Source: Negaprion brevirostris
Lineage: Eukaryota
NCBI GenBank assembly: GCA_030324005.1
Contig: JARDVH010000031.1
Location: 38,234,442-38,298,441 of the forward strand
Direction: 5' to 3'
DNA: 64,000 nucleotides
In this document: in pieces, positions 26,188-63,380 of the stretch
How the letters are laid out: each line of letters starts with the position of its first letter
Numbering within the stretch: the stretch's first letter is position 1
Made by a program: the position numbers and the translations under genes
The notes under the pieces: generated by a model
The model's input: only the letters and a program-made list of their open reading frames with translations
Databases searched by the model: none
What the model was told of the DNA's origin: nothing

Positions 26188-26473
26188 GTACAAGAATGGA
26201 CAGCAGCTGACAACAGATCAGCATTTAAAAATTTCAAACAAGGAAGGCAAACACATTCTTTTCATTGACAAGGTGTCTGATAAAGATGCTGGCATTTATG
26301 TTGTACGAGCTAAAAATTCTAATGGTACTGTCAGTTCCAGTGCTATCCTTCAAGTACAAGGTAACTGCAGTCTCAGCTGTTTCCACACTGGTGATGTAGA
26401 CTGGTTCACCTGTCTTGGTTTGTTGTGTACACTATATGTTAGCTTTTTTCTTGTGTATATGCTGTTGATCTAA
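26188..26473 (+). CDS. CCDC141: CCDC141 terminal exon: second half of the Ig domain (YKNGQQLTTDQHLKISNKEGKHILFIDKVSDKDAGIYVVRAKNSNGTVSSSAILQVQ) plus hydrophobic tail (DWFTCLGLLCTLYVSFFLVYMLLI*)
   Basis: ctttacttcag| acceptor; G at 26188 completes the split Trp codon (TG+G), giving the canonical W-Y-K-N-G; D-x-G-x-Y Ig motif; TAA at 26471-26473. Confidence 0.92.
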
Positions 26474-28510
26474 CCATTGCAAATATATGTTCCTGCCACA
26501 TGGCTGCCTATCACTGTCTGTTCTGCAATATCTGCACTTACCACAATCACATATATTATTGTACAATTTTTCGGGTAACTTTAGTAATGTGTTTTTATTG
26601 CTGACTTTTTCAGGGATTATTTCTTTGCTGTTGCTCAAAATGAATACATGGAAAATACTAATGTTATAATTTAATATTTTTCAGTGAAATAGCTCTTTAG
26701 CAATTGAACAACACTAACTTGAATGTTGCTTGTAATCAGTAACATTAGTGAGAATTTAACTGTCTGATTATAGTGATAGAAGTGGAAATGAGTACAGAAA
26801 CATTATTTGCAAAAGACTGAAAAAGGATAATGACTTGAATGGCTTTTTCATTGCTATCTTTAAAATGTTCATAGAGAAACAGTTTTGAAGTTATTTACAG
26901 ACAAATATGGACTCTTTAATTACAAGGGCAATTTTTGCTATTCAACATTTTTGAAACAGAGACATTGCAAAAACATGTGAAAATTGTAAATGAATGGCTG
27001 GTACAGTGGTATGGCATGCTGGCACACGGATATGTATGATGTGTTATTTTCATGCATGATCAGTTCTCTGTCTAAGATGTCTGTGGGGGAAGATATCGAG
27101 GAGAGACTAGATGGTTTCCAACAGTGAAAGAGAGAAAATCAAAGGGCAATTGCCCTTGGTGAATACACGCAATATCACAACACACTAGTGGAAAAGCAAA
27201 GATAGCATTGGCCAAGGTTGGCCCACACTTAGTCAGAGAATAGAGTATTGAATTATAAATCTAGCAGTTCGAATGGTTAAGGAAAATAGAAGTATCACAC
27301 AGTTTTTAAAAAATCTTGCAGATGAAATGTGCATTGTTTTAATGATGTTTAATTGATTCCAAATAAGGACTTGTTATGTTCAGCAGATCTCTACTGTTTT
27401 CAATACTTTCTCGCTGGATCACTTTAAAACTACAATGGGGAACTTTCAGAAGTGAATTTTCCAAAATAATTTTATATTTATTGGAACAGTGTGTATTAAT
27501 AATGACTTACATTTCACTATATTTTACTTGTACAATTATGCCAACAAATCACAAGTTACAATGTATTGATAATACAAACAATTATATTTGTCTTTCTTCG
27601 TATTACCATAAACATTTAGAATTAAGAATATTTCATTGTCATTACCTACTTTTGATTCTTCTCTATGGTACAAATGAAATTCATATTGCTGTAAGTTGTA
27701 CCAGTGCAGTCATGCTGACCAAGAATCAGTGAGACAACAATTTTATGCTGACTGAGATGCATGGAACACAATGTCTGTTGGATGACTGAACTATATTGTG
27801 GGTCACACTGAGGTCAACCACAAAGGAACATTGTACACAATTCCCTCCTGACAGTTCATTTTTAAAACTAGGGAAAAAATAGGTCAGAGAGGTGATTCTC
27901 TCAATATTTAACCCGATGTCCAAAAGACCAGTTGAGCACCATCTTAATGTAGTTTCATACCAAGAGTCCTGAAACAGCTAATGTGAGCCTCACATCACTT
28001 ATAGAGCCATAGAATCATTTAATTTGCTTGGAAGTCAGGTGGACATTTGCTATGAGTTATGCTGTATTTTGCATATTAACTCATAACTGAAACCACACAC
28101 ACAAGTGGTATTAGAACTGCACTATGAAACATTTGGGATCAACTGATTTATTTTTACTTACTGTAATGTGTATTTACAGTATATTGGAGATGAAACAGTT
28201 TCACAAGGAGATTAATATACAAGGTGGTTCTATTTTGCATGTTTTATAGCAAAACATAACTGATTAGCAATGTAGAATTTAGTTATGCATTGCTAAACAT
28301 TGACAGTTTAAACAGTACATGCGTTCTGGTAAATCTGTGGCTGGTGATTCTGTGTGGTGTCAAATATATCAGAAGAAATGTAAGTGAAATAAAATGCACT
28401 CTGGAAAAATAATCATTTCTTTCAGTTAAAAATGATTGGTTAGATCAAAGAATGTTTTCACAATCACAATCAAAAAACAGAACAATAAAAGAGCACTTAG
28501 AACAAATCCC
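26474..28510 (+). other. Putative CCDC141 3' UTR with polyadenylation signals
   Basis: About 2 kb of AT-rich sequence with no recognisable repeat after the stop codon; AATAAA at 28388-28393 and 28484-28489; repeats resume after about 28580. Confidence 0.5.
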
Positions 28511-29169
28511 TTCAAAAATATCTTTATTATAGTGTACAGACATTAACTGCAAATGTTTGAGGCTGCAGGGGGAAATATGTGGCCCATGTATTTTAAGAGT
28601 TAATGGGAGGAATATTCCCAGGCTTTGGAGGTGGGTGTGGGGGAGGTAGGGGAAAACAAATTTGGTTTAAAAAGGATGCATTTGACCAGTGGAAAGGTCA
28701 ATATCAGCCTTGCTGCCCATAAGTCAATGAAGGCCTTTAAGTGGTCAATTAATTGGAATCCACTCCATTTGGGTAGTTTGCCAGGTATACCATGTTGGGA
28801 CTGTTTGCAGTCAGAGGAGGGGTGCCTTCTGCTCGACCACTTCGTGCATCAGAGAGGGCCATATGGCAGCAAGGGCTTTCCTTGTAATAAGACTCTTCTG
28901 ACTTCACACTGACCGGATCCTCCCTCCCAATGCCAGAGTCTTTCTGACTAGCCCTAATGAGGCCACCCCACTTGCCTGGGTTCTGGGCCTCCACACATGA
29001 TTGCGGTGATTGGCCGGATCTTCCTGGAGCTGGGATTCTCAAGCTGAAAGTCCTAGCAATCCTGACAGCTGACAGCTAAGTGCCTGACAGGAATTTAATC
29101 CCATTGGAGCTTTCAGAAATGACAACAGATGCATTGCCATCCCCAAGTCATTAAATTTGGCCTATCATG

Positions 29170-29940
29170 CCAAAAATTATTATCCAGCCTCACTTTCCAG
29201 CACTTGATTCATTCTCTTGTAGTTATAGCATTTTAAATGCGTATCTAAGTATTTTTTAAATGCATTGAGACTTTCTGCCTCTGTCACTCTTTCAGACAGT
29301 GACTTCCACATGCCCACCACCTTCTGCGTGAAAAAATATCTCCTTCAATTCTTCTACCGATTACTTTAAAGCTATACCCCTGATAATAATCTCTCTGCTG
29401 AGGGGAAATAGGCCCTTCCTATCCACTTTATCCAGACTCTTCATTATTTTATATACCTCAATTAAATCTCCCATCAGCATCCTCTATTTGAAAGAAATCA
29501 ACCGCAATCCTTCCTTAAATCTAAAATCTTCCACTCCTGGCAATGCCCTTGTAAATTTCTGCTGTAATTTCTCTAGTGCGATTGTTTGACTGGAATTGTA
29601 TGGAGTTCCCTAGCTTTGGCCCAACTAGGATTTTTTATAGTTCTAGTGTAACCTCCTTGTCCTCCTGTTATGTGTCTCAGCTAGTAACATGTAAGCCTTC
29701 TTAACTGCCTTAACCATCTGTCTGGCTAGTTTCAGGAAATGGTACTTCAAGCCATTTCGCCTGCACTCCTAAGTATCCACTTATTTGCTATTTCCTTGTC
29801 TTGTTTGTCCTCCCTAAATGCTTTACCTCTCATCCCTCTGGATTGAATTCCATTTGCCACATTTCTGCTGATCTCTCTCGAACATTGATATCTCCTTGCA
29901 GTCTGTAGCCTTGTGTCATCTGAAGATGTGTTCATCATGA
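29170..29940 (-). mobile_element. CR1-like LINE 3' fragment
   Basis: Similar to 1940-2816 in the same orientation. Confidence 0.65.
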
Positions 29941-32900
29941 TTCCTACATTTAAGCTTCAATCAAAGATTGTCTCCCACAGAAAGCCAAAAAAAAAGCTGG
30001 TATGGAGCTAATACATCAACTTCCATTGCCTCTTCATTACTGTGGTAGTAATCATTACCACACTGAATAAATCAGAACGAAATAAGCCTTTTAATTACTA
30101 AGAATAATAAAGTGTTTGCCTAGAATTCTGCATAGAATTCTTACCTTTTGTAAATAATGGACATTGCATTTTTCCAAACGACAGGGACAAAAGGTGAATC
30201 ACAAGACCTCCCTGTTAAATAACTCATCCAATTTGCATCCTATGGAAATGAACAGCTAAAGGATCTGCACTGCAACTTTACATTGTGATGTTGAAAATTA
30301 ATTCCCAATTTTTCAAATTGTCACTACATCCAAGGAGTGGGAGATTGCAATAGGCCTTTACAATGGAGTTGGATGAGTTCTTGCAAATGAAATATAGCTC
30401 AACTTAGAGCATGTCTGTAGGTTTAGCTGGGTTTAGTGATACCAGTTACCATGGTCTCTAGCCTTCGCAATTGCCTTTAGAGATTGGAAAAACATTTTCC
30501 AGAATCATTTTCCTGAATCAAACTAAGTATTTTTTCCATTGTGTTTTGTCCTTCCCAGTCATTGTGTGACTGTGATGAGGTTATGTTGCCTCCATATTAT
30601 CCAAGCCTTGTTTCCTGTAATCAGTACAAAGAACCAGAAGTTTGTTTGAAGGGAAGAGCGAGATTGACAGAGAGAAGTCCAGAACCTCGAGGCATGCAGC
30701 TGAAAGCACAACCACCAATGACAGAGTGATTATAACTGGAATTGTACACAATGCCAGAGATGAAGGAATGCATGAATTTCAAAAGCTGAGTGAAGGTTAA
30801 AAAGATAGGGTTAATTTTAAAATTGCAATGTTGCTGGACAAGAATCATAAAAAATAGAAGCAAGCTATTCCGCCATTCCTATAGCATCAGTGGCTGGGAT
30901 TCTGTCAGTTAATGAGGGTCTTGTCCATCAGTCAAAGAACCAGCGGGAACCCCACCCTGGGCTTTCCCCACGGAGGGGAACCATCCATGGGGGAGGCCCG
31001 ACATAATCAGTGCCTTCTGGCACTTAAGCAGCCAGCATATGGCCTACCCTGTGGGAAAGTCCTGCAGTTTCCATTTAATCCCTGATCCATCACCAAATTA
31101 ATGGGGGTTCAGGGATAACTGGTGTCAATTAGCCCATTAATGAACCAGCCCACTGTAAATTAAATCCAGCCCACTGTAGGTCAGTAACCACATGAATGAT
31201 GGGGCTAGTCAGGGGAGCATTGAAATGGTCAAGGCTAGAATTGAGAAAAGTGTGGATGAAAGTTCAGTTTATGAGCCGAGACAGGGTTGGAGTCAGATAA
31301 TGGCATGGAGGTGGGACAACTTAGTCGTGGTTATTAGCTTATTATACGTTTCATTTGGACCATTCGTTTACTTGTGTCATCATGATGTTCATTTAATTTT
31401 TTTTGGCACTGTTAAGTCCAGCTTTGCACAGAGGCTGTTGAAATGTGACACTAGTGCAGCACCAGCTGATTAGTGACTCTCAGCAGCAGAGTAGTTAAAT
31501 CAGAACTTGAACTGGGAGATTTACATCAAATTTAATTGTTTGGACATACATATTGTAAAAGAAATATATGGTACCCACAGTTATAAGGAACAGTTGTCCA
31601 ACTTTGTCCAACGTTTTTAAAGATATGGAAAGCAAAATTTTGATTGGTGTGTTGCCGCAAAAGGTGAATTGGAAGCCAGGAGCTGTCCCAGTGCAGAGCA
31701 CTATGTCTCCAGCTGCTTTTGCCACAGCACCCATGCTATGAAGCACCCTCATGCAGGTCAGCCACACGTGTGGAAGAAGCCATTGAACGAGTGCTGACAT
31801 CACTCAGCCCTAGCTGAATGCCCTTTTGATTCTTTATTTGTGAACTCAGGTCATACAAGCAAGAGGGATCCACCACTAGTATTTTGTAAAGGCTGAGCAA
31901 TCAGTTTGCAGATAAGGCAATTTTGGAATAACTTTTGCCATTGCAAAGCCTCTGGAAGTACTATGCAGTGTTTCTGTGGATGCTGCGGTGAGTTCCTGGA
32001 GTTGACGCGGAGTGTGGCTGCATACTCACAGAGAGGGCAGATGATTTTATGACAGCAGCAAATATTAGGGCAGTGGTGACAGTGTCCTTTAGTCAGCATT
32101 ACAACAGGGAGATGACCCTGAAGACAAGAAAAATTCTCCATGATACCCTGTCCAGGACAGAGCCAATAGAGTGCATCCTACAGAACCAATGATGGCTCTC
32201 CACCAGTTCACCTCCACTACAATGGCCTCCAGCATCACACCTGTGAACCTGGGAGCCCTCACTCTTATTCTGAAGTTCCATTTTCCTCTTTAAAACTGAA
32301 ACTATGGCAGTCAGCAGCAGTGTTCTGTGATTCATTGCAGCTTCCCCTGAATGGAGAAACCATTGCCGTGACAGTTCATCCTCTCTGTTCCTATCCAACC
32401 CATTTATAACCCTCTTCAACCTCTTTATGTCCTCATCACTTACTTATCTATCATCTTTTGTATCATCAGCATTCTTGAATATGTTACACTCAGTCCCCAA
32501 CACTTAAGGCACTAGCACAGATTGTAAATAGCTGATGCCCAAATACTAATGTTTGCAGAGCCTCATAAGTTGCAGCCTATCAACCCAATAATGTCCCTGT
32601 TCTTACAATTCTTTGTACCTGTCCATTAAGCAATCTTTAAATCATGCTAATACATGAGCAGTCTCATGAATCCATTTCTGTGTAACAATCTCATATGTGG
32701 CACCTTATCAAATGCTTTTGGAAAATTGCAATACATGACNNNNNNNNNNNNNNNNNNNNNNNNNNNNNNNNNNNNNNNNNNNNNNNNNNNNNNNNNNNNN
32801 NNNNNNNNNNNNNNNNNNNNNNNNNNNNNNNNNNNNNNNATTCACTGGTTCCCCTTTATCCATCTTACTACTTACATCCAAAAAAAGATCTGATAAATAT

Positions 32901-34959
32901 GACCAGCACATTTTCCCTTTCATAAATCTGTGTAGATTTGGCTCAATAATGTTATGATTTTCTATGTGCACTGTTACCATATCCCACATGGGTAGTCAAG
33001 AGCAGCGAATGCATCATTAAAAAGACCTCACCTACTACCACCAACTCCAATTACCAATCACTTGCTGCTTCCAGATAACTCCAGCTATTTAGCTGCAGCA
33101 GACTCATCACACAAACACAGTGGAACACAATCAGTCTGTTTCCTGCAGGACAAGGTTGTATGTAACTGCTGAGAGCAGAGAAGACTTGATGGATGAAAAG
33201 TTCACTGCATCTCTTGAACAATGTGAAGGAGATGATTCTCTGTATTTTGGGGCCTGCTACAACAGAATCCATGGCATCAAGTATCACCAAGGCCATTGAG
33301 GATAAAAGATGTTCCTGCATTATGATCCTTCTCAACTTCTAACTCACACTCATTCTACTATTTGACATGATGAGCAATCTGCTGATGGTGTGGCCATGGA
33401 CCATGGACTTTCTACTCTTACCGCCTCCCACGCCCCAACCTTTCCCTTTAGATTTATTATGTTCAGGCAGCCAAGAATTGCTGCTTTTCCAGCCATCACA
33501 GCTGAAGAAGGAAGAGAGAGAACAGCACCACAACACTGATCTTGACTACCCATGTGGGATAACGTAACAGTGCACATAAAAAAATCATAACATGACTGAG
33601 CCGAGTCTACACATATATATGAAAGGCAAAATGTATTTGTCAAATCTTTCAGAGTTTTTTGAAGATGTAGTAGTTAGATTGATAAGGGGAGCGGAGCCAG
33701 TGAATATAGTGTCACTTCATCTGACACTTGCAGCCATCAATTCAAATACCAGCACTGCAAGTACCTTACAGGCAAATATAGAATAGGGATCTACATGTGG
33801 TAAGTCCCAAGGCATGAATGGCATCTCTTCCACAAACATTCACTCACTCTACTACTGACACACAGCAGCAGCAGTGTGTGCCACCTACAAGATGTGCTAC
33901 TGGAACTCACCAAGCGTCCTTAGGCAGTACCTTCCAAACCCACAACCACTGTGATCTCAAGGGAAAAGGGCAGCCAATACATGGGGATACCATCAGCTGA
34001 AAATTCTTTTCCAAGCTACTCAAAACCCTAACTTGGAAATATATTGACACACATCTATCACTTGCTTTAGTGTCAACTTCTCATCTTTTAATGGACTTTC
34101 TCTCACCAGAACTAATCTATCTGTAATCAAGTCATTTTTAGCTGTCTAAATATGCATGATTAAGCAAGTTTATTACTGCTATCATGTACTGTTCAATGGG
34201 TTTCATATGCACCATGTTCTCTAGTGTTGAAAACATAGCGTTCATACATAACATTCACTTGAGGTCAAAGTGTTCATTCAAAGCTTTCAAAATCTCTGTT
34301 GTCTTTTCTCTTTGCTCATTGTTTAGATTTATGGTGGAGTATACATTGTAGCAGTGTTAGAAGTATGGCTACTCTTATCAGGTCAGGCTTGTTAACACCA
34401 TAGTTTTGCCAATCTAAATGAAAAAAACTGCCAGGTTTGCCACATATCACATTTTGTATCTACTGGAGCTGGGATTGGAAAATTTACTGCAGCCATTTTA
34501 CTCAGTATTCATTTACAGCCTTCAGGATGTATTTGCTCTCCTTTTGTCCTTTTGTGCATATTTTTCCATTGTCTCTTTTTTCTTAGCTTTCTGCAGATTT
34601 TAAACTTTTCTATGTGCCTTTCTTAGCTGTGGCTTTACTGCAGCATCTTATTTGCAGGCATTGTCCTTTGTCCTTGTCTCAGCAGCTTTTTTGCACATTT
34701 AAACCTTTCAGTGTGCTTAAATTCTCAGTGTCTTATCTGCAGCATTTGCAGGATTCAAAAATCTGATTTATCCCCACTTCTGAACACCATGTTTCATGTA
34801 TAAGGCCTGCAGTACTTCATCAGTGCTGTTCAGATGTGACACGTAGGCATTTCCCTAACTCCTCCATATTGTCCTCCTTCTGCACAGCTGTGATGTGCTC
34901 CTTTACTAACAACTCCAGCCCACCCCCTCTCTTCAACCTTCCTCTGTCACGTCTTCATC

Positions 34960-35560
34960 GGCCAAGGTACTGAGTTTAAAAAAAAATGCAAGTCATCTTG
35001 CAGCTTCATAGAACTATAACTAGGCTGCATTGGAATATAATGTTCAATTCTGGTCGCCACACTACCGGAAGGATCTGGAGGCTTTGGTGAGGCTGCAGAC
35101 AGGATTTGCCAGGGTGCTGCCTGGTATTGAGGGTATTAGCTATGAGGAGAGGTTGGAGAAACTTGGTTTGTTCTCATTGGACCAACGGATATTGATGGAA
35201 GTCTACAAGATTGAGAGGTGCGTGGACAGAATGGATAGTCAGAAGCTTTTTCCCAGACTGGAAGAGTCAATTACCAGGGGGCATACGTTTAAGGAGTGAG
35301 GGGCAAGGTTTAAAGGAGGCAGATTTTTTTTTCCACACAGAGTGGTGGATGCCTGGAACTCGTTACTGGGTAAGGTAGTGGAAGTGGATATAGTCATGAC
35401 TTTGAAGGGGCATCTTGACAAATACATGAATAGGATGGGGATAGAGGGATATGGTCCCAGAAAGGTAGGGGGTATTAGTTCAGTCGGGCAGCATGGTCGG
35501 TGCAGGCTTGGAGGGCCGAAGGGCCTGTTCCTGTGCTGGAATTTTCCTTGTTCTTTGTAA
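34960..35560 (+). mobile_element. CR1/HER1-like LINE 3' fragment
   Basis: EYNVQFWSPHYRKDLEALVRLQTGFARVLPGIEGISYEERLEKLGLFSL is the typical CR1 ORF2 C-terminus; 3' tail gggccgaagggcctgttcctgtgctg. Confidence 0.88.
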
Positions 35561-36584
35561 TTTCTCTCCAATAGAGAGAGACAGCTTGTTCCATGTCGCT
35601 TCAGGGACACAACTTAGTAAACATGGGGCACTGGGAGGAGGTGGGACTCCATGAACCCCACAGCCGTACAAGGACCAAACCCTCAACATTAGCATCATTC
35701 CACATCACANNNNNNNNNNNNNNNNNNNNNNNNNNNNNNNNNNNNNNNNNNNNNNNNNNNNNNNNNNNNNNNNNNNNNNNNNNNNNNNNNNNNNNNNNNN
35801 NNNNNNNNNTTTTTTAACTGGTCAGCGCAACATCGTGGGCCGAAGGGCCTGTTCTGTGCTGTAATGTTCTATGTTCTATGTTCTATTTCAAAATCTAAAC
35901 ACTAAGTCTGATGACATGCTAGTCTTCAGATTGCACCCAAGCCAATGCAATGGGTAATCTCATTGTAGAAAAATAAATTTGAAGGCACTTCATTCGGCCA
36001 ATAGAAAAGAAAATGGTTGCAGAGCCACATATTAGAGGGAATGATCAAAAGTATGATCATAGAGTTGGGGTTCAAGAAAGGTCTTTTGAAGTAAATGGAG
36101 AGATTTAGGGAGGGAATTCTAAAATGTGAAGCTTAGGCTGAAAGGAATATACGCAGACTGAGAGTTTGGGATGTGTGGGTAGATTGCAGCATTGGCAGAT
36201 GTTAGATAGTGAAGGATAAGGCCATGTACATACAAATTTAAAGACAATAGAATTTTAAAGTTTGGGTGAGGTACATTGAATCAAAGCAGGACAGTAAATG
36301 ATGTTGAGTGGGGACTTGGTGTGGGATAGGATATGGTTAACAGAACTTTTACATGAACTAAAATTTTCCAAGAAGTGGAGCATGGAGACCGGCCAGCAAA
36401 GCATTCAAATAGTCAGTTTTTGAAAGAATAAAGGCATGAATGAGAAAAGGCCACAATATGGCTGAACTGGAGGCAGAAATGAATGATGTTATAGAGATAG
36501 AAATAAAGTCTTTGTGATGGTGAGAATACGGCTTTGATTTATTTTTGTAATGCTTAGCTGGAGGAAATTGTTGTTCACAGCAGC

Positions 36585-36985
36585 AGTGGCCAGCATTGCT
36601 GCCTCTCAGTGCCAGAGACCTGGGTTCGATTCCCAGCTTGGCTCACTGTCTGTATGGAGTTTGCCATTTTTCCTTCCACAGTCCAAAGATGTGCCGGATA
36701 GGTGAATTGGCCATGTTAAATTCTCCCTCAGCGCACCCGAACAAGCGTGGGAGTGTAGCGACTAGGGGATTTTCACATTAACTTCATTGCAGTGTTCANN
36801 NNNNNNNNNNNNNNNNNNNNNNNNNNNNNNNNNNNNNNNNNNNNNNNNNNNNNNNNNNNNNNNNNNNNNNNNNNNNNNNNNNNNNNNNNNNNNNNNNNGT
36901 GGGAGTGTAGCGAATAGGTGATTTTAACATTAACTTCATTGCAGTGTTCATGTAAACCTACTTGTGACTAATAAATAAACTTTAA
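36585..36985 (+). mobile_element. HE1/V-SINE-type SINE spanning a gap
   Basis: B box gggttcgattccc, core, tail ...cttgtgactaataaataaacttta. Confidence 0.75.
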
Positions 36986-37919
36986 AATTGAACAGTCTGA
37001 GTTCTGAGAGTCGAGGAGAAACTGAAAGAAGGAGTAGAAAAGATGACAGTGTTTTCAGTGTTCATTTGGAAGTTGGTGTATGTTTGAAATCATCAAAGGG
37101 CAACAAGAGATGAGGAGGGGCTGTAGATGGGAGGATTCGAGAAGTTATGATGAGTGTGTGGGACTTTGCTGGGTATGCTCTGGTTCTGATTGGATAAGTA
37201 GGAGTGAAATAAAAAGGGAAGCCAATTGAGCTGACCAATAGAGAAGACAAGCCCTTGGAAAACCAAATAGTTATTTTGTGGGAAGGAGTTTCCTCGCCTT
37301 TGCATCCATAGTACATTCATTCCTTGATGTAAAGGTGACAGAAATTTGCTTCATAGTGCCTCAATGTATTTGCATTACCTTGAAATTTCCATTGTTTGTC
37401 TTGCCTCTTCTCGAAGTGATAATGCAGAAGTAGGAAGGGAAGCTATTGCTGGAATGTTTCTGGCTTTATTGGATAAGTAGGAGAAGAATCAAAGAAGGGA
37501 AGCTTACAGAGCTCAAATATGGGGAAGGTAACTATTCAAAGCAAGCTTGTTAAGGGAAAGGTACATTTTGGTTGCAACAGGTGCTGGAAGTGGCTGAGAA
37601 AAGAGAGTCATAGCTACTAGAAGAGAATGCATCAAGGTTTTCAGATGTAGTATTGGAGGCCTTGATGCAAGAAGTGAAAAGAAGAAGAGCTGACCTCATC
37701 CACAGCGGGCCAAGGATGCCCTTTGGACAAACTCTGAGAAGGCAACAAGAGCAGAGACCCATTGTGGTTAATGCAAATAGCCTCAACAACCTGATGCTGT
37801 GCTGCGAGAGGCTTAATGGCCCCACACTGTGGGAAAGATCAATAGATGCATACCCTTATAACTGAAGTACTAATCTCACACAATGCTTACAAACTATGTT
37901 ATCAATCATGCTTCACAAT

Positions 37920-51717: not shown

Positions 51718-54700
51718 TACAAAACTGGCCAACATCACCCCCAGACCAACATAACTGGTTGTGAGAACACATGTCCATCATTGTTCCCTCCTCCTCCAAG
51801 TCCAGCCCCAGTGGTGGCCACTACTCCTGGATACTGCTGAATGCTGACCTCATGATGAGCTGGCAGCTCTTGGAGGTGAGCAGCTGTGCCACTAACAAGA
51901 TGTGGCTATGGGTTCTGCTGACCATCAATGTGGGGTTTCCCTGCCCCTCTTTCAGACCAGTTACATGATTCCCATCATCAGATCTAAATTCAGCCCGCAT
52001 GTGTTTGAGGAAAACACAGAACTAGACTTGTCACTATGCCATCAGTTAGTAGGACAATCCATATACAGGATATTTGCAGTTGTAAAAGCCCATACCTATA
52101 ATAAAAGGAATAAAGACCATTCAATTATTAATTTGCAAGTGTAAAGTTAAATGATATATTTTTAATAACTTGTACTTCAAGTGGAGAGGTGTAATTAACA
52201 ATATGGCAAAGGGAACATGCTTTTGGACTCGATGTTAAATAAAATTATTTATTGTTCTTTGACATTACCATACTATATATCTTTGCCAATAAATATTTAA
52301 GTAATGTAATTATCAATTAATAATTAATTACAACTGCAATCTGTTAAAAAGCTTTCAGAGCTGGTAAAAGAAACTTGCTTCTATTTGTTAGTGTTTCCAA
52401 ACGTTTTCTTGTTCTTCAAGTTTCCTGTGAAGCCAAACAGGTGCTAGGGAATGTATTATTCAATCTGAAAGATTTTTCTGTGGCCTGAATTTTCCAATTA
52501 CCTGAATTTATTTGACTATAAATTATATTAATATTTTGTTATAATTCATTACCATTTATGATACCTTATATTGTGCTGTCAAAATGTAATAAATAATGAG
52601 TAAATAATTGTTAAAATTTGCTTTGTTCTTTGATCTAGTATTCACAATACAATTTCATAGCATCTGCTGTTGGAGAACTGAAACATATCCACCATTCTCA
52701 AGAAAATAATCACAAAAATTAAAACTGATGCCAATTGAATATACTGCATGTTTTGTTTTATACATCTCTAATTTCAGTTCATCAATTTATTTAAAAATTC
52801 CGTGGCTTACAAGTTTATGAAATGGATTCTAAATATGGATAAATCAGAAAAAAGAAACATTTAAAAATCTGGGGTACAAAAAGTTGAATCCCACTTCCTT
52901 GATGACATCTGCGTGTGATGGATAGGAAATAAGCAATTCCAACAGGAAAAAGGGGAGGGATATCCATTTTGGGGCAGGAAGCCAGCAATAGACTTTACTG
53001 TCGTGCCTTGCCCTATTTCTGCTACTGTTCAACCTAATGTTAGGTAAAGTATTCCAGCTCCCCTTACTTCAAAACCACTTAGTTTTAACTGGATTCTTAA
53101 TTATGAAGAAAAGCATATTACTCCATTCACTGTTCAACCGATGTTTAAATAAATGCCAGTACGAAAATGAAGTTTGAGCACAAGGAGTTATGTACAATCT
53201 GCAATTTTAGTTCTTGTGCAACTACATCTAATGGCCTGTTTTAGAATTTCTTTTTATGTTCCTTGTATCTGAGTGTTCTGAAATTCAATACTGAGTTAAT
53301 GCTAGTGATGGGTCAACAGACTCCTAAATTTAATCAAGTCATTGCAGCTGTTTTAAATGTCAAATAAGCACGCAACAGATTGACAGGAGCATTTGGGATG
53401 ATAATTCATTGCAGGATTTACTGTTCGCATAGAAGCGTTGTAAACTTATTTGGATGAGCAAAGAAGTTATCATAGTATGCAAACCTCTCAAGGTAATGGA
53501 AAGTAACAAGTTATAACTTCAGTCAGGTGCAAACACACCTTATCTCCAAGCCCATAACTCTTCCATTGTTTTATTAAGCAATGTCTAGATTTCTAAATTT
53601 TAATTCTTGTTTTCAAATTCTTGTATGGCCTTGCCNNNNNNNNNNNNNNNNNNNNNNNNNNNNNNNNNNNNNNNNNNNNNNNNNNNNNNNNNNNNNNNNN
53701 NNNNNNNNNNNNNNNNNNNNNNNNNNNNNNNNNNNNNTGGCGCCTGTGCCTTCAGTTGCTTAGGCCCTAAACCCTGGATTACTCTCCTAACACTTCTCCA
53801 GCTCTCTACTTTACTTTTCTCCTTTAAGAAACTCCTTGAAACCTACCTCTTCAAAAAAAGCCTTTTGGTCATCTGATCTAATATCTCCTAATGTGGCCCG
53901 GCTTCATATTTTCTTTGAGAAATACTCTGGGATGTTTTATTATGTTAAAGGTGCCATATAAATAAACATTATTGTTGTTGTACTATTGAGTTCAGCGTGA
54001 TATGCAGTTGGCAGATAATTTAGGCATGCTGTTGAAACTATTCAGAATCACTAAGCTGATTCCTGGGATGGAAGATTTTTCGTCTGAGGAAAGGTTGGAC
54101 CCATATTCATTGCAGTTCAGAAGAATGAGGAGTGATCTTGGGACACCTCACCCTGTCCAAGAGGTCCCCATGTAAGGACAGTGCAGGGGTTGGCTGGGAA
54201 GTTTTTAAACTTCTGACGGACAATTGCTTTGTACCGAGATCCATCTGATACTGTGATTTCAATCAGAGAATAGTTAATGAGAAAAAGTCAGAAGGAGTTA
54301 AACAATTTTGCTTCGTTGACAACTATGGTACTAATCCCCTGACCTGCCCTCTCCTCCACTGGATCCCTGATCACCCTGACCACTTGGCATCTGCCCCGCC
54401 CCCCACCCCCACACACCAACACCCCTGCCAACCTCTCAATACTCTCTTCGTTCTGCGACTACCCCAATCCCCTGAATATGCCCCCCAAGCCCCAACTATA
54501 CCCTAATCCCCTACCTACACCCCTAACCTCCATGACTATGTCCCATCCACTGGCTACCCTCCTGACAACCCTGACTATCCCTCTGCTAGCCTCCCACACC
54601 ACTGACTACAACCCTCACTTCTTGCCTATACCCCAAGCTGCCTGACAACAGTCTTGGCCCTCTGACTAAGGCCCTGACATCTAACTATCACCCACCCCAC

Positions 54701-55229
54701 TAGCTAAACGCCTGACCCTCATCTACCCACNNNNNNNNNNNNNNNNNNNNNNNNNNNNNNNNNNNNNNNNNNNNNNNNNNNNNNNNNNNNNNNNNNNNNN
54801 NNNNNNNNNNNNNNNNNNNNNNNNNNNNNNCCTTCTTGAACCCCCTCCCTGACCACCCAAATCACCCAAATCCCCTCCCCCAACCACCCAAACTACTCTC
54901 CTCAACCCTCTCTTGCCAACCACCCTAACCCCTATCCACATATCTTACAACTTACCTTCTCCAAGCTTCTCAAGGTGGCTGGGACCAATAAATGTGCCAG
55001 AAACTGGTGTGTACAAAGTGGGTATGGTTTCACTACCCCCAACACTGATGCCTCCAGGAGCTGCGTTACATTTCTCACTAGGCCTGGGATGGAAGATCAG
55101 GTGGAAAATGTGCAGCACCTGACTTGGTTATGTGAAAAGGTGTGTAGTGGCAATCCAATGATGAGTGCCAGTCCGCTGAGGTTCTGGCTTATAAGTTGCG
55201 GAGGTGGCTTGGCAGGACAGATGCTGCAA

Positions 55230-55515
55230 GATGGATTCCCCTTGTGACTGAATCTAGAACAATGGGGACACTGTTTAAAAATAATGGGTCGCCCATTTAA
55301 ATTAGAGATGCGGATAATTTCTCCCTTCAAAGGGTTATTAATCTTTGGAATTTTCTTGCCAAGAAAGCAGTGATTGTGGGGTCATTGAATATATTGAAGG
55401 CTAAGTTAAGAAAGTGGAGTTAAGGCTACAGTCAATCAGCCATGATCTTACTGAATGGTGAAACAGACTCGAGGGTCACATGGCCTCCTGCTCTTATTTC
55501 TAATGGTCTTATGAT
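55230..55515 (+). mobile_element. CR1 3' fragment
   Basis: Similar to 21065-21370 (gaatctag..c..gggg..cactg.ttaaaaata; atcagccatgatcttactgaat). Confidence 0.7.
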
Positions 55516-56371
55516 GTTGCACTGACACATACCAATCTGAGATCATCTGTTTTTAAAAAAAGAATTGTTCTGAAGATGTGGGTGATGTTGGCAACATCAC
55601 ATTTAATCATCCATCCTTGGTTGCCCTGAGTAGGAATTGGTAGAACTTATCTTTGAACCACTGCATTTTATGTAATGATGGTCACATGGTGGTATTAGAC
55701 AAAGAATTTGAAGATAATGATCCAACAACAGTGTCCAAATCAGGAATTCATGTGATTCAAAGTTGAAGGTGTTCCCATGACAATGTTACTGTGATTTTAC
55801 CTGGGTCGTCCAGGAAGAATCCCTTGTGAAGGGGATTGTCACAGTATAGGTACAACTTTATTTTCTACCAGCAAAATCTCGCTTCATTTTAAATTAGACA
55901 TTAACTAATGCATGTCAAAAGTGCATCAAATCTCTTCCATTAAAATAATTTAATACTGTTCAATTTATCATCACAAGCTGTGATTTTACGTTATCCAAGA
56001 GATATTTTATTATTGCAATAACTTGAAACTGTTACTCAATTTCTCAATTTTCTATATGACTTCCTTGTATAACTTTGAGTTTCTTTCAAAATAACTGGAC
56101 TAGATTCCCCTCCTGTTGGCAGGATAGTAACAGAACAAGACAAATGCCTGGCCACATCAGTCCATTACTAACCTGGCACAATTCCTCCTCAACACCCTCA
56201 ATTGGTATACAAGACAGAAGTGGAGCAGGAAGACTGCTTGTAGCTTACCCTCTCTGGGAAGGATAGAAATTGATAGCTGCAGTGTTCAGATTACTGCAGC
56301 TACCCCAAAATCCACAAATCTATCTGGAAAGCAGTACTCAAACAATACAAAATTGCAGTAGTCTGAAGCAT

Positions 56372-56740
56372 CGGTAGTACAGTGGTTAGCACTGCTGCTT
56401 CACAGCTCTAGGGACTGGGGTTCGAATCCTGTGTGGAGTTTGCACATTCTCCCTGTGTCTGCATGGGTTTCCTCCAAGTGCTCTGCTTTCCTCCCACAGT
56501 CCAAAGATGTGCAGGCTAGGTTGATTGGCCATTCTAAATTGTCCCTTAGTGTCCTGGGATGCATAGTTTAGAGGGATTAGTGGGTAAATATGTAGGGATA
56601 TGGGGAGTGTGGTTGGTGCAGACTTGATGGCNNNNNNNNNNNNNNNNNNNGATTAGTGGGTAAATATGTAGGGATATGGGGATTGTGGTTGGTGCAGACT
56701 TGATGGCATCTTTCTGCACTGTAGTATTCTATGATTCTAT
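56372..56740 (+). mobile_element. HE1/V-SINE-type SINE
   Basis: acagtggttagcactgctg...ggttcgaatcc head, full core and tail ...ctatgattctat. Confidence 0.85.
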
Positions 56741-57399
56741 AATCTCAACAACTGGAAGAAGTTCCAGATTTTCCAGGCATCCATGGAGGTATTTTTTAGT
56801 AAGTGAGGACAAAAAGAGCAGCAGTGTTGGGTGTAATATTCAAATATACAGTTGTTTTGTGTTTGATTATATGAATCTGTTTACTATTGATGTTCACTGT
56901 GCTCGATTAATTAACCCTGGTTATGCACTCTGAGCAAAGTAAAAAAAACTGTAGAAATTGCTGGAAGAAAAGAACAGTAAGCATGGAGTAGACATTTTAA
57001 AGTACTATGAATAAAACTTGTTTTACATAACAGAACTGGTTTCATCTCTGCATAGCTTCAAAGTAGAAAATATACAGTACTGGGCACTTAAAGACGAGGA
57101 TGGTGCAGATTATATGGAAGTACATGATAGAGGTGAATGCTAGTTGTACCATTTTAAGACTGACACACAATGCAAAAGAGATTCAATTCCTCATACAGGT
57201 AATAAAAGTAAGTCTGAACACTGGTAACCTTACACATCTATATTGGTACTTTCTCCACTCATCCCCAAAAATATCAAAGTCTTTCTTTCTACTCATCTAT
57301 GTGCTAGGGAAACTTGGCAATACAACAAAAACATTTCTAAAAACACTCCCAACATCATCTTAAATAACATCTATTCTATCAACTCATAAGAGCTATAAC

Positions 57400-59910
57400 T
57401 GTAGTGTAATGGGTTAATATTAAATATGTAAGTAGACAGTCTATGTTAGCAGTAATGTAAGATCACATGACAATATGTCAAACCTCATGTTAAGCCTTAT
57501 ATTGTATACAATTAGAATGTTCTATAAAAGGTAAGGTTTACCAACAACCTAACCTCCTGTACTCTCAGTCAATCCAGACCAAGTGTAGTTTTATCTAAGA
57601 TCCACAACAATGATAACAGATTACAGCAGAAAACATGACGAAAAAAAACAAGTAAACAGCCCAGTAACTGGTAGAAGCACTAAAAGAAATGATTGTGGGA
57701 TGAGGACAGTCTGGGAAAATGCCAACAAAAATCAAAGGAAGGTTAGAATGAAAAAAGCCATGGAAAAAAATCTTATTTTTACCAGAAGGCTTCAGAGCCT
57801 GGATCAGCCAGTGAAATGGAAGAATTGGCATAGTAGGTTTGCCAGGTATAAAACCGTTTTGAGGCTAACAGAAGAGAATGACAAGGAGCAGGTCATTAAC
57901 CATCTCTACACCATAGGCAGAGATGCAGATGACATAATGTGCAGGCAGGGCCTAAACAAAGAGAGAGCACCATACAAAGAAGCAATAAAAGACTTCAACA
58001 ACACATTTTGCAACCTTAGGTGAAGGGTGACCTTCAANNNNNNNNNNGAAAGAAATTAATTTGGTATCACATTGTTGCAGGAGTTTTAGAAGATTATCAG
58101 ATGTTCTGCACTCAAGGGAGGATATGATGCTATCAAAGGCCATGCAATTAACAAGACATAGAGAAGTGAGAAAGCAAAATTGTGTATTTATTCAAGGTGA
58201 CAGGGAGATGAAGTGAAAAAGTGATTGACACTATGCAGGACACAAAAATAACAGTATCCCTGTCCAAAACAGGACAAGTACAAAGAAGGCAGTCACCACC
58301 ATTACTCCCTATCCTCACTGTGGCTGGAAAAGGCTGCACCAATGTGAAGAATGCCTCATCAAAATGTAGGGTGCCATTGTATACCCCAGCAAAAAACTCC
58401 TAAAACTAGAAGAAAAGGAGAAATCAATAAAATCATTGAGTATTCAGGAAATTGAAGATGAAAGAGACAATGATGTGCCATTCATGGGACAAACTCTAGG
58501 ATCTAATGGGAACTATTGGATTGCAGATATCTAATCAACAGACATAAAACATACTTCAAATTAGACACTGGAACAAGAGTTTCAGTTCTTTCAGACACAG
58601 AACAGGGGCTACAGCTAAAATCTCTCCTGTTATTGAACATATGACTCCATGAGATCNNNNNNNNNNNNNNNNNNNNNNNNNNNNNNNNNNNNNNNNNNNN
58701 NNNNNNNNNNNNNNNNNNNNNNNNNNNNNNNNNNNNNNNNNNNNNNNNNNNNNNNNGTTTCAGCATGTACATAAGGGGAAAAACTGAGAAAATATTGGAC
58801 ATCAAACATAGCACGAAGAGTTATTTCCTCTGGGCGTCTATCTGTTCTTTAAAAAAAAATGTTATTCCAACTATGAATAATAGTTCATTAGAATTTTTTA
58901 ATGAATTATAAATGACAGAAACCTGATATATGATCCAAAGAGTGTTTGCTGTTAAGCTGATGAAAAGCTTATAAGGATCTGCAATTCATCTATAATGTAG
59001 GGGAAGTCAAAAAAATATATAATTCAGGACAGAATTTCCAAAATTTTTCAAATGTCTTAGGAAAACTGAAACAAGAGTACAAAAGACCTGAACTTAATAG
59101 AGCCATTTGAAAACTGACAGAACATTGGCAAAAGAAAAGCAGGTGAAGGAATTACAAGCTCATTACCTGGAAGAGCAGCTTGCATCAAGCAAGAAACAAA
59201 TGGACAGACTTAAGCAAGATAAACAACAAGCAATGGCAGATGCATTGTTAAGAAATCTGTTGAAAATCCTGAATAAGGGGACATAAATTTATGATATATT
59301 GTCCTATATATCATTGACCACAAGATTTCTACCATCACAAACACAGAGACAAAATGAAATTCAAAAGGTGCCAAAGCAGGTGCTAAAAATAAGGAAGACT
59401 GGGAAAATGTATGGCAAGAATAATTCTTGACAATCTCACACTGAAGCAATACTTCAAGCAATGAAGATATTTTGGTGTTGTAGATGACCTGATTTATGAT
59501 CAGAGATTGGCCATAACAAGAGTCTTCAGACTCGAGATCCTTCAGAGAATACACCTGGGATACCTAAGAATGCAATTCTGTGTGGAGGCCAAGGATCTCG
59601 GAATCAGTAAAGGAAACAATTTTGAGCTGATTCACATGTGAAATCCATTGCCAGGAGCAAAGGGAACTGCTAATGGTATCTTTAATGCCATTCATGCCAA
59701 GGAGACACCTCAGAATGAATCTTTTCAAGCTCAAGGAGAAGATATTCCTCATTATTGTTGGCTATTAGTCCAGGTAGATTGAGGTTAAGTATCTTCATGA
59801 TCCAACCTCAGAAGCAGTCGTTAAATCACTAAAATAATTTTCTGCTACACATCGCATTCCAGATCTTGTCATTTCAGAAAATGGCCATATTTTGCAAACA
59901 TTAACTTTGA
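57400..59910 (+). mobile_element. Second decayed Gypsy/Ty3 element (gag, protease and integrase relics)
   Basis: gag-like WKNWHSRFARYKTVLRL...EQVINHLYTIGRDADDI (57610-58023), protease YFKLDTG at about 58552, integrase-like FSATHRIPDLVISENG at about 59838. Confidence 0.75.
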
Positions 59911-60896
59911 AAGATTAACTTTGTTTCTTTCTCCACAAATGATGCCAGACATGCTGAGTTTTTCCTGCATTTTCTGTTTTTATTTCAGATTTCCAGCATC
60001 TGCAGTATTTTGCTTTTATTTTAGTCTTTAAAGGAAAAATATATCTGACCCTTTTGTCAATATGGACAAATAAGGAAAATGTTCATGTGCCTTAAACATC
60101 CTCCTGCCTCTCCAAAGGAAAAACTTACTCATAACCATCATATTCAAGGAATATCAATCCATAAAATTCTGCGTCCATTATAAGAAGAAATCTTAGAAAT
60201 CATAGGCAAGAGAGGTTGCAGAGACTGGAAGCAGTGTGCAAGTAGAAGTTTGGTATATGTTAGATAGAGATCAGCATAAAAAATCTAGGTATCCTATGTT
60301 TGTTCAAAGTATACCCTCAATTGTCCTTACCCTTGACAGTTATTTCTTCAAGGGGAAATGGCCCTTTGTGCATAGCTAAAAATGCCTTCTTGTATTTTGC
60401 AACCTAGAAGGTGCCATGTTTGAAATGTATTAGTCATTACCTATGACTTGTAGAATACTCAGTGGCAGCCTGGAAAATTTCTTCAGCATCAAGCTACCAG
60501 GCACAGTTTCTGAGGATATTGATGGTTGGTGGGGAGGCAGTTCCTGGACTATCCTTGATTCACTAGGTGTCTTGAGGGTCATCCTAAAATAGATTTCCAA
60601 TACTTGAATGAAAGTATTCATCTGTGATAATTTCAACTAGTTGCATCTCTGAGCCTATATCCAGCAGAATCGATGCAGGCATCAATATCCCTCATTACAA
60701 GGCAATGAGACTACTGCCCATTAAGGGTAAAGTTTGAGTGAAATAATTGGAGAGGAATAGTCTGTCATACCCCACCAAAAGAATGCAAATAAAAGTAAAT
60801 TAGAAGGGATATTATGGCCACCCGAGAATATTAATGAAATGTCAGGGAAATGGAATCCCATTAATCTCTGAAATTCAGATTAAGTTGATTTCAGTC

Positions 60897-61225
60897 AATG
60901 TGTAATGAGGCGGGTAGAATTAGGGACCTTGTGGTGAAGGATCCTCTTGGGGAGAGTGATCATTGTATGGTTGAGTTTCTGGTGCAGATGGAGGAGGAGA
61001 AAGTGGGTTCCCGGACACGCGTCCTTTGTTTGAACAGAGGGGAGTACGGNNNNNNNNNNNNNNNNNNNNNNNNNNNNNNNNNNNNNNNNNNNNNNNNNNN
61101 NNNNNNNNNNNNNNNNNNNNNNNNNNNNNNNNNNNNNNNNNNNNNNNNNATTGAATGGCGGGGCAGGCTCGAAGGGCTGGATGGCCTACTCCTGCTCCTA
61201 TTTCTTATGTTCTTATGTTCTTTAT
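60897..61225 (+). mobile_element. Young CR1 LINE, collapsed across an assembly gap
   Basis: Endonuclease end (DPLGESDHCMVEF) before the gap and the CR1 3' tail after it; CpGs retained. Confidence 0.75.
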
Positions 61226-62186
61226 AAAGTAGAATAGAGTATGTATTATACATAATCCAAGAGTATTCAATGTTGGTAACTGCTGCCAAAGTGAAGAAGT
61301 CCTATAATTATTATTACTGGCATGAAATAACTTAATGAACACAAAAACTCAAAGGTGCATGTGTTCGTAGCCCACCCTTGCAAAACACTTATTGAATCAA
61401 TCAATTAATTATTTAAAGATAGCACGAACTTTCCTGAATGCTCTCTTTATTATTCTTTCATCATGTAACTATGTAATTTTATATGGAGCCAATTATATCA
61501 AATTCATCTTTTACAATATCTGGCGTACATGCATTTTCAATACAAATATCAACAGGAATAATTTTTTTGCTGATGGGTGGTTTTCTAAGTTATCAGTGTT
61601 ATTATTTGTTTTTGTGATGTGAATGACACAAGCTAGGCTACGTTTATTGTCCTTCCTTATTTGCTCCGAAATTCTCCTTGAACTCCTTGAACTCCTTGGG
61701 ATTCTCTTTGAACTGCTGCACTCATTGTGGTGATTGTACTCTGTGTCAGTGTTTAGTAAGAAAGGACTGAATACTGACCTAGAGGTATTACCAGAACATC
61801 AATACATGTCCAAGGTCCAAGTCAAGATAGTATACACCTGAGATTTGATAGTATTATCATGAAATTTCTGCTCATCTAACTCTTGACTGTAGAGCTTTGA
61901 GGAGAGGATAAAGACTTACATGTATTCACAGCTCCAAGACATTCCAAAATGCTTTACTACCACTGTATCTTTGAACTGTAGTTGCTGCTATAAAGTAGGA
62001 AAATGCTGTCGAGATAATCTGTGTAAGTTATTACAGTGCACCCTGTGTAACTCATGCACAATATACCAATTGATGGAGGCAGTTCTGATCAAGAAATGCT
62101 GTGCTCATAAGATGTCATCATAAAACATATTTTAACGTAGCTGAACGATCTGATACACTCACCAGTTGATATATTTTTATTTCTAG

Positions 62187-62341
62187 TACAAGACAAACCT
62201 CCAATTTTTGAAAAGAAATTTGGTGATTCAGTATTAATGACAGGGGAAGATCTGATACTCCATTGCATTATTTCAGGACAACCAAAACCAAGTATTACAT
62301 GGTTAAAGGATCACGTGATACTTTCACCCAAGAAATCCAAT
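62187..62341 (+). CDS. Ig I-set domain exon, N-terminal half: (V)QDKPPIFEKKFGDSVLMTGEDLILHCIISGQPKPSITWLKDHVILSPKKSN
   Basis: tttttatttctag| acceptor, AAT|GTGAGC donor; phase 1 start, phase 0 end; I-set hallmarks PPxF, G-E-D-L-I-L-H-C, G-x-P-x-P-x-I-x-W-x-K-D. Confidence 0.88.
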
Positions 62342-62453
62342 GTGAGCCATCTAAATTTGATTTTATTTGTTTTATTTCAGGCTATTAGAGTCTAATGGTT
62401 ATATGGTTTAATAACATATTTAATGTGCTTAATAAAGTGTTTTTTTAATTTAG

Positions 62454-62583
62454 AGAGAGCACTTTGGTGAAAATTATGTATTCAGGAAAAGAAATATAGG
62501 CTCAGCTGATACTGGAATATATAGTTGCATTGCCAGAAATGTAAAAGGAGAAGTGCACTGTTCGGCTTCAATAGTTGTTACAG
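62454..62583 (+). CDS. Ig I-set domain exon, C-terminal half: REHFGENYVFRKRNIGSADTGIYSCIARNVKGEVHCSASIVVT
   Basis: ttttttaatttag| acceptor after a 112-nt intron, ACAG|GTATTT donor; phase 0 start, phase 1 end; D-x-G-x-Y-x-C-x-A-x-N-x-x-G motif. Confidence 0.88.
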
Positions 62584-63229
62584 GTATTTGTATAATTGAT
62601 TTATTGCAATGTAAAACTTTCTAACATTGACCATATGATAACTATAAGCTACACAGGGCATAAAGTGTAAGTACATGCTAATGACTGGATTACGGTTTTC
62701 TATATTCAGAACAAAAAGTTAAGATTTATATGATATAATATAACCATTTTATTTTCAATAGCTAACAGATTTATCAAATTTGTAGCTCATGATAAATATC
62801 AGTTCTTCAATTAGTGTTATTACATATCGGCAAAGTGCAGCAAATATATTACTGGCACCCATTCAAGCTGAACAATAGCACCTATGAAATGGACACGCTA
62901 AAGTGCAGATTGCCTAGAACAACTTTGTTTCTAAATGCATTGGAGGTTCAGAAACCCATAGCTAAACCAGGTTCATGCTAATGCTTTAAGATAACATAAA
63001 AACATAACATCAACATAATGTAAACACTTCCAATGTATATTAATCTATATATTACTACATAGCTAGTAAAAATGTTTTCTCATTACAGCTGATAAACTTA
63101 AGACATTTTAAGCTTAATATGGAATTTTAACAAAAACATGAATTTACTTTACTATTACTGAGTACAATAATGCACGAGGAATTTATTTCTACATAGTTTT
63201 GAAACATTATTAATGGTGGTTGATTTCAG

Positions 63230-63380
63230 AAAAACATAAAGAATTATCCACTACCAGTAAGGAAACTCCAGAAAAGGATAAGGGAATTATGATCAAGAAA
63301 GTTAGACCTGATTCATTTATAAATACAAACAGACGTGGAGCATGTTGTGTAAATGATCAAAGATCAAAGACATGGTCAAG
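63230..63380 (+). CDS. Linker-type exon (E)KHKELSTTSKETPEKDKGIMIKKVRPDSFINTNRRGACCVNDQRSKTWS; the gene continues beyond the window
   Basis: gatttcag| acceptor, consensus AAG|GTAAGT donor; 151 nt open in exactly the phase (1) required by the preceding exon. Confidence 0.7.

Follow-up and report, generated by a model that had tools for sequence, protein, structure and literature searches.

Our analysis indicates that the window, a 64-kb stretch of Negaprion brevirostris DNA, carries CCDC141 on the forward strand. A CCDC141 model from Mustelus (P0001) aligns in 25 colinear tblastn blocks at 78-98% identity, the last being the exon that starts at 26188; of these, the 20 blocks besides those in the window map up to 112 kb upstream of it. 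Four upstream coding exons lie at about 4427-4549, 6743-6820, 11068-11619 and 14299-15285 (+ strand; 89-95% identity to P0001); their bounds are the limits of the tblastn matches, and the splice sites may differ. The fourth ends in the first half of an immunoglobulin domain, Ig1, and Pfam Spectrin and I-set matches occur both on P0001 and on the epaulette-shark model P0023 (Hemiscyllium ocellatum, RefSeq XP_060684102.1). Titin follows 3' on the same strand, with Z1 and then Ig arrays from 71675 (in coordinates extended past the window). It has its own TATA-like box and a non-coding first exon. The earlier note had stated that in other vertebrates CCDC141 is the immediate upstream neighbour of TTN and shares its strand; this is also the case here, the first coding exon of titin lying 8.3 kb past the last long-form exon described below, in agreement with the published gene order (PMC12198301).

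The second half of Ig1 is encoded at 26188..26360 (+ strand) and is common to two isoforms. A donor had been noticed exactly at the end of this domain, and we confirm it: CAAG|GTAACT, at 26360/26361 and in phase 1, falls within the top 2% of 1842 intronic GT sites. Splice-site scores in this work come from a small self-trained matrix, which must be crude since the true acceptor of titin exon 3 scores low. When the donor is ignored, the frame runs on through 26361..26473 (+ strand) into a hydrophobic tail, GNC...WFTCLGLLCTLYVSFFLVYMLLI-stop, giving a short form. The best 19-residue Kyte-Doolittle mean of this tail is 2.37, and on hydropathy we predict an anchoring helix. Tails of this type are also found in 29 of 49 chondrichthyan models and in bird models, and candidate poly(A) signals AATAAA lie 3' of the tail at 28388 and 28484. 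When the donor is used, an intron of 35.8 kb would be removed and a protein made of spectrin repeats, Ig1, a second Ig domain (Ig2) and a linker would result. The 26360 donor acts as a conserved switch that separates a short form, predicted to be tail-anchored, from a likely soluble long form with two Ig domains.

The long-form intron occupies 26361..62186 (+ strand), contains repeats and N-gaps, and is defined by a junction in a contig that we call X1. It leads into three exons on the + strand, through which the reading frame stays open: exon A (62187..62341, phase 1 to 0), with the first half of Ig2; exon B (62454..62583, phase 0 to 1), with the second half; and exon C (63230..63380, phase 1 to 2), which encodes a 50-residue linker, predicted to be disordered, that matches no Pfam family and is 44% identical to the epaulette-shark model. 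The acceptor of exon A, TTTCTAG|TACAAG, ranks in the top 1.4% of 2440 AG sites; as the earlier note described, the exon begins at 62187 in phase 1 and gives the joined protein ...SSAILQVQ-V-QDKPPIFEKK. The donor of exon C, AAG|GTAAGT, has the consensus form, and its score puts it among the best 0.2% of GT sites in introns. The earlier note saw no other credible exon in between; an Ig-profile search in six frames of 26-73 kb gave no Ig piece inside 26361-62186 (best match E=4.9), with the proviso that the 12 N-gaps in this interval might conceal sequence. Other shark models have alternative ends that are short, and comparing these with the intron gave no convincing exon.

Splice scores by themselves are weak proof, and we accept the junctions because the spliced contig X1 provides decisive evidence. 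X1 is one contig of 444 nt at a depth of 9.75, presumably derived from RNA. It begins exactly 30 letters before the 26360 donor, one below the 31-letter bridge rule; 28 loose letters match 26331-26358, a match that is unique within 264 kb, and then continue into exon A. Between A and B and between B and C it omits introns of 112 and 646 nt, each bordered by GT..AG, and it follows exon C to 63358. The predicted junction of 26360 to 62187 is present, with all three long-form junctions on one contig, in a close relative: X1 differs from the window at 18 of 416 aligned letters and is not from N. brevirostris itself. RNA support for the long form consists of this one contig, from one study of a relative, at a depth of about 10. 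Three runs were compared at the long-form exons; the other two, X2 and X3, include the two short introns without a break, the pattern expected of genomic DNA. Logan contigs may break at branches of the 31-mer graph, and if this is why X1 starts where it does, the short and long forms would both be present in the X1 sample.

Could the downstream exons instead form a separate gene with its own promoter, or owe their position to a misjoined scaffold? The 12 N-gaps leave room for such a reading. However, the X1 junction is direct and unbroken at the acceptor of exon A, the identical join appears in shark, bird and turtle annotations, and the gene order is the published one (PMC12198301). We regard a separate gene or a misjoin as very improbable, and the corresponding objection raised in the earlier note, that the exons belong to an unrelated gene or a misjoined scaffold, is largely refuted by X1.

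Exons A and B together encode a second I-set domain, with Pfam scores of 32.4 bits for exon A (cutoff 23.7) and 23.8 bits for exon B. Exon A is 41-57% identical to bird and turtle Ig2 by tblastn, and the whole shark Ig2 is 47% identical to turtle Ig2 and 44% to bird Ig2, compared with at most 35% for shark titin Igs and 26% for Ig1. Exon B carries a lysine at an E-strand position that is normally hydrophobic. This lysine, seven residues before the DxGxY motif, is found in 107 of 107 long models, while all 32 shark titin Igs have I, L, V or C there. On identity and the shared lysine, shark Ig2 is orthologous to bird and turtle Ig2. For the bird form P0066, the orthologue to which the predicted beta-sandwich fold of Ig2 applies, AlphaFold places two I-set folds against each other (block pLDDT 66-89), followed by a tail modelled at low confidence. 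The ESM Atlas gave only generic I-set clusters as Ig matches; matches in the PDB were generic Igs, with no CCDC141 entry in the best 60 of 143. Exon A alone, searched against proteins of 91-2000 aa, returned two candidates, neither significant, in what is a weak test given that P0023 contains exon A.

The long two-Ig CCDC141 is a real, database-annotated isoform, of which we found no description in the papers searched. The earlier proposal of a longer isoform through an internal donor is upheld by X1 and by the epaulette-shark model, in both of which the Ig1 donor is joined to the Ig2 exons; P0023 runs through Ig1, A, B and C and then stops at TWSST. Ig2 follows Ig1 in 106 of 107 database models, nearly all named birds or turtles (P0015 and P0065-P0170 among the 120 matches listed, the other 13 being multi-Ig proteins such as hemicentin), so the suggestion that sharks in particular retained the long form does not hold. 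Beyond X1 the support is automatic annotation. Intron-retaining bird models (P0201, P0188 and P0095) suggest shared exon phases, and in the goose a transmembrane form (P0224) and a long form (P0071) are both annotated in one species. Since Ig2 and its exon phases are common to sharks, birds and turtles, Ig2 probably dates from the jawed-vertebrate ancestor. Among the 49 chondrichthyan CCDC141 models fetched only one has Ig2, and the long form may therefore be minor or patchy.

Long models from Hemiscyllium, chicken, tinamou, turtle and others share the donor, Ig2 and a linker like exon C, and lack the membrane tail. The human and mouse protein (CAMDI) has, in its 24-exon form, spectrin repeats, an Ig domain and a C-terminal transmembrane tail, and its gene adjoins TTN as in the shark. 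In the portion of PMC12657953 available to us, one Ig domain is described and the isoform without the transmembrane segment, isoform 1, is a truncation (exons 1-23) rather than an Ig-extended form; that portion of this functional paper does not describe an Ig2 splice switch. Extrapolating from the mouse isoforms in the same part of that paper, which differ from the shark long form, donor choice would shift the protein from membranes to the sarcomere or cytosol. What is secure is a conserved splice switch, between a predicted tail anchor and a second Ig, in a locus with GWAS links to heart rate and arrhythmia according to the same source.

How does the long form end? A conserved last segment of their own (about 20-45 aa), followed by a stop, closes 101 of 106 long models of the bird/turtle type, none of which enters titin. 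In the shark interval between exon C and titin we found no homologue of this segment (best E=0.29 by tblastn and 1.5 by HMM) and identified no last exon; the tblastn match lies inside titin intron 1 and is taken as chance. The DNA that separates exon C from the titin promoter does hold candidates for such an end, with good acceptors (one at 69242) and poly(A)-type hexamers (69477 and 69890; extended coordinates), and the sole acceptor giving the epaulette-type end S-T-stop scores poorly. A short last exon of its own, placed ahead of the titin promoter, is the likely end of the long form. Overall, we consider it probable that splicing from 26360 to A, B and C yields a long form in which Ig2 replaces the predicted membrane tail, and which is likely soluble and likely ends ahead of that promoter.

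The proximity of titin nevertheless admits a more far-reaching reading, in which splicing from exon C passes over titin exon 1, together with the titin promoter, and goes to exon 2, adding about 1,860 N-terminal residues to titin in the order spectrin repeats, Ig1, Ig2, linker, RVPTK and the Met of Z1. Titin exon 2 (L002:7675) lies past exon C by 8294 nt of intron and begins with a 13-nt phase-2 leader. Computed from the DNA, a join of exon C, itself ending in phase 2, to exon 2 stays open through Z1 with 0 stops in 305 codons; exon 2 joined straight to exon B, or to the donor at 26360, is out of frame. In birds, too, the end of exon C seems to be in phase 2, and in other vertebrates the titin leader reads R-V-P-x-x-Met. 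Among 45 matches to the exon-2 peptide (cluster representatives), 20 have at least five residues before the titin Met: R stands at -5 in 16 of these, corresponding to an AG|A acceptor at -13 nt, and V-P is present in 17; one is a genomic ORF off the pattern and three are spliced teleost gene models, the taxa of the ORFs being assigned by likeness and ORFs with an upstream stop being invisible to this count. Leader length and phase are thus widely conserved, although this could reflect nucleotide-level splice or Kozak constraint; a literature check gave nothing on leader length in human titin. Against the join, phase and openness would match by chance in about 27% of cases, and the exon-2 acceptor ranks only fifth of 489 AG sites downstream of exon C. 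X1 ends 22 nt before the exon C donor, so that the junction lies beyond its reach. None of the CCDC141 models fetched, in searches limited to 2000 aa, carries a titin start, none of the 45 exon-2 matches is a vertebrate titin extended by CCDC141 or Ig2, and annotated long forms end before titin.

A human FLJ39502-TTN transcript crossing from CCDC141 into TTN was reportedly described by Labeit et al. in 2006. Transcripts spanning the two genes are cited for human and Drosophila (PMC12198301 and PMC12657953), which favours the join; the Fig. 2 legend of PMC12657953, however, marks a stop codon on the human transcript, whereas the shark DNA offers a stop-free route through Ig2 whose final junction is predicted. 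Such a stop would fit a non-productive read-through, in which the RNA spans both genes while exon C is spliced to a cryptic acceptor or into exon 1 of titin, so that an early stop follows and the outcome is only a long CCDC141, or else a target of NMD. All top-ranked downstream acceptors except that of exon 2 yield short dead-end peptides, and the epaulette model stops two residues past exon C. The AG beside the titin start site is poor, however (rank 282 of 489), no reads support this route, and we hold it to be improbable. A productive join of exon C to exon 2 seems to us somewhat less doubtful, if still unlikely. It is only tentatively that we suggest that sharks, and perhaps other jawed vertebrates, continue to produce a CCDC141-Ig2-titin mRNA in frame. 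The 13-nt "UTR" would then be where coding begins (R-V-P-x-x) in an internal exon inherited from the ancestral connectitin gene discussed below, and the product would be a minor titin isoform with a nesprin-binding, spectrin-repeat arm at the Z-disc.

An ancestral fused spectrin/Ig gene, "connectitin" (SESTD1-CCDC141-TTN), has already been proposed (PMC12198301), and the Ig2 exons would likely be a leftover bridge of it. Its bridging exons and an in-phase entry to titin exon 2 are now located in a living vertebrate, and a single pair of primers would suffice to test the idea. Should the last junction prove real, vertebrate titin has an N-terminally extended form that has gone unrecognised and could connect costameres or the nuclear envelope with the Z-disc, and the conserved leader of 13 nt would be explained. 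In connectitin, in Drosophila zormin/sallimus and in the titin-like protein of Saccoglossus, CCDC141-type spectrin repeats lie upstream of or fused to titin-type Igs on one strand, as in the shark; fusion is annotated or reported for these three, whereas in the shark, where titin has promoter features of its own, it is only possible. An attempt to match Ig order in Saccoglossus (shark Ig2 to its second Ig, Z1 to its third) was set aside, since the margins are 1.5-4 bits and Ig2 from birds and from turtles prefers another Ig. The Saccoglossus protein itself (XP_006823021.1, P0284, 6732 aa), a further point for the fusion, joins an Ig array to a CCDC141-like N-terminus that is 25% identical across some 1130 aa (E=1e-127); no last exon of the sauropsid type, which would close the long form ahead of titin, was found in this shark.

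Our analysis indicates that the long CCDC141 isoform is real and that a single shark exon has two mutually exclusive fates, a TM tail or a second Ig domain (Ig2). The Mustelus asterias CCDC141 model P0001 identifies the gene, aligning in 25 colinear blocks of 78-98% identity. These begin 112 kb before the window (38234442-38298441 of the contig, + strand) and reach 26470, the last block starting at 26188 (+). At the end of the first Ig domain (Ig1) lies the internal donor CAAG/GTAACT (26360/1, phase 1, +). If it is left unused, the frame continues for 37 residues as a tail whose end is strongly hydrophobic, and then meets a stop. The earlier note held that this donor is in phase with downstream Ig exons, and indeed the frame stays free of stops through exon A (62187-62341, +), exon B (62454-62583, +) and exon C (63230-63380, +). 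Exons A and B, which form Ig2, each pass the Pfam I-set cutoff, while the linker exon C matches no Pfam family. The note saw no other credible exon in between; a search of the 35.8 kb from donor to exon A, an interval containing 12 N-gaps, gave no Ig piece.

Presumably the internal donor competes with nearby polyadenylation, yielding either a tail-anchored or a soluble protein, and the long form would serve as an adaptor with two Ig domains and no TM tail. In mouse, PMC12657953 places the TM isoform at the nuclear envelope and close to the Z-line and a TM-less isoform close to the M-line or A-band; the CCDC141 Ig domain is reported there to bind titin.

The 26360 to 62187 junction was sought in reads and is present in a contig from a relative. 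Six runs matched in the run search, none on record as RNA, and three (X1, X2, X3) were compared with 61200-64000. X2 and X3 cross the short introns without a break. X1, RNA by the tool's guess, is about 96% identical to the window and hence from a relative; it holds two records, a 34-letter repeat match and a 444-nt contig of depth 9.75. This contig has 28 loose letters ahead of exon A, continues through A, B and C, and ends at 63358, its A-B and B-C joints skipping a 112-nt and a 646-nt intron, both GT..AG. The loose letters are identical to 26331-26358, a string occurring once in 264 kb; with the AG common to donor and acceptor there are 30 upstream letters, missing the tool's bridge rule by one. 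Thirty letters would be the remainder expected from a 31-mer graph branching exactly at the donor, and such a branch would imply that both short and long forms were present in the X1 sample. The RNA support is one contig from one study.

We compared 49 CCDC141 models from chondrichthyans. The TM tail is the C-terminus in 29, the donor is used in 11 that finish in other short ends, one has a different read-through and seven are without a full Ig1; A, B and C are present in one, Hemiscyllium XP_060684102.1 (P0023), which stops at TWSST. A profile search with Ig2 matched 224 proteins, of which 120 were listed, 13 of these being multi-Ig proteins such as hemicentin. Ig2 is present in 106 of the remaining 107, almost all of which are named as bird or turtle CCDC141, and 101 close with a conserved last segment and stop; the query leaned toward birds, and these listed matches carry no inference for mammals, amphibians or bony fish. 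TM-tail forms occur in birds too, and intron-retaining bird models (P0201, P0188, P0095) appear to break at the shark exon points and phases. Automatic annotation of several vertebrate groups already includes the long isoform. Some CCDC141 C-terminal fragments or cluster members (P0066, P0279, P0014) are publicly named myopalladin-like, unc-89 or VEGFR1-like, and such names may hide the long isoform from name searches.

Two further resemblances concern other models. Behind the short-form stop lies a segment (27101-27240) that aligns at 72-79% with the C-terminal end of the catshark draft model P0002; it holds a stop here and is probably either conserved non-coding sequence or a repeat, wrongly annotated in P0002. 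When translated, the exon A acceptor tract (62168-62185) resembles the short end D-V-F-L-F-L... of the Mobula model P0042 (5/6 residues, E=0.016); in rays, splicing may go to a displaced acceptor of an exon A that has decayed.

Shark Ig2 is 47% identical to turtle Ig2 (89 bits) and 44% to bird Ig2 (84 bits), against at most 54 bits for the shark titin Igs tested, and Ig1 is also more distant than the turtle and bird Ig2. A Lys encoded in exon B is found in all 107 long models and in none of 32 shark titin Igs, all 32 of which have a core hydrophobic residue (I/L/V/C) there; this Lys may be the sign of a binding surface or of a fold with lower stability. In a predicted model of the bird C-terminus, two Ig folds abut and the tail is of low confidence (mean pLDDT 59).

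How does the long form end? The downstream DNA, where the note wished to see whether exons continue into TTN, is occupied by titin for at least 190 kb. A TATA-like box comes about 6.7 kb after exon C, together with a first exon that is non-coding; we label it titin exon 1 from its position, its donor, the arrangement of human TTN and a teleost model (P0287) with an upstream peptide similar to one of the exon's frames. Titin exon 2 starts at 71675 (L002:7675; positions above 64000 carry the window's numbering on into the next stretches), its leader (L002:7675-7687) placing 13 nt ahead of the ATG. The donor that closes exon C is a consensus one in phase 2, and joining exon C to exon 2, as computed from DNA, gives ...TWS-R-VPTK-MATQAPTF, stop-free through the first titin Ig (Z1); the 26360 donor and exon B are each out of frame with exon 2. 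An exon-2 peptide search gave 45 matches, 20 with at least five residues ahead of Met. Among these, 16 have R at -5 and 17 carry V-P, with one exception in another phase and three spliced teleost models. Of 17 genomic ORFs running through the acceptor, 14 have R-V-P-x-x ahead of the start Met and in its frame; two others differ by one residue and one is in another phase. Leader length and phase are thus widely conserved.

In favour of a productive fusion of the long form into titin exon 2, the sauropsid-type last segment was sought in this shark and not found, and a CCDC141-titin-like fusion is modelled in a hemichordate (Saccoglossus XP_006823021.1). However, such a phase and frame fit arises by chance about 27% of the time, the exon-2 acceptor ranks only 5th among 489 AG sites, and other acceptors and poly(A) hexamers precede the titin promoter. 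Moreover, annotated long forms have their own stops, and no vertebrate fused protein appears among the CCDC141 models fetched (searches to 2000 aa) or the 45 exon-2 matches (cluster representatives). We regard fusion as rather unlikely and non-productive read-through into titin as quite improbable, and lean toward an own last exon as the main fate of the long form.

The Saccoglossus model (P0284) has 6732 aa, the first 1130 CCDC141-like and fused to an Ig array, and is an annotated deuterostome fusion of the connectitin type, the proposed SESTD1-CCDC141-TTN gene. The evolutionary reading, an ancestral fused gene, is already in print, and PMC1851013 has a passage on synteny. No description of a two-Ig CCDC141 isoform or in-frame vertebrate fusion was found by title or text in the literature searched, whose coverage mostly excludes subscription journals; CCDC141 and zormin had no match in five supplements of PMC12198301, and CCDC141 is absent from the main text of PMC12241362. 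Three points are new: the long junction was checked by RNA in a shark relative, Ig2 was recognised as orthologous between shark and sauropsids, and titin exon 2 was seen to offer an entry in phase.

The region also holds broken ORFs at 17722-18335 (-) and L002 ~2400-3700 (-), the second between exon C and the titin promoter, which look like PIF/Harbinger transposase remnants, and a 144-codon ORF at 57589-58020 (+), presumably an LTR-retrotransposon gag fragment. Further downstream, near-identical titin I-band Ig exon pairs at extended positions 171500-185000 (L012-L014; e.g. 171513/180241, 174854/182606, 177027/184492) suggest that an Ig super-repeat was recently duplicated in tandem; PMC12241362 describes duplication of a like kind in cartilaginous fish.
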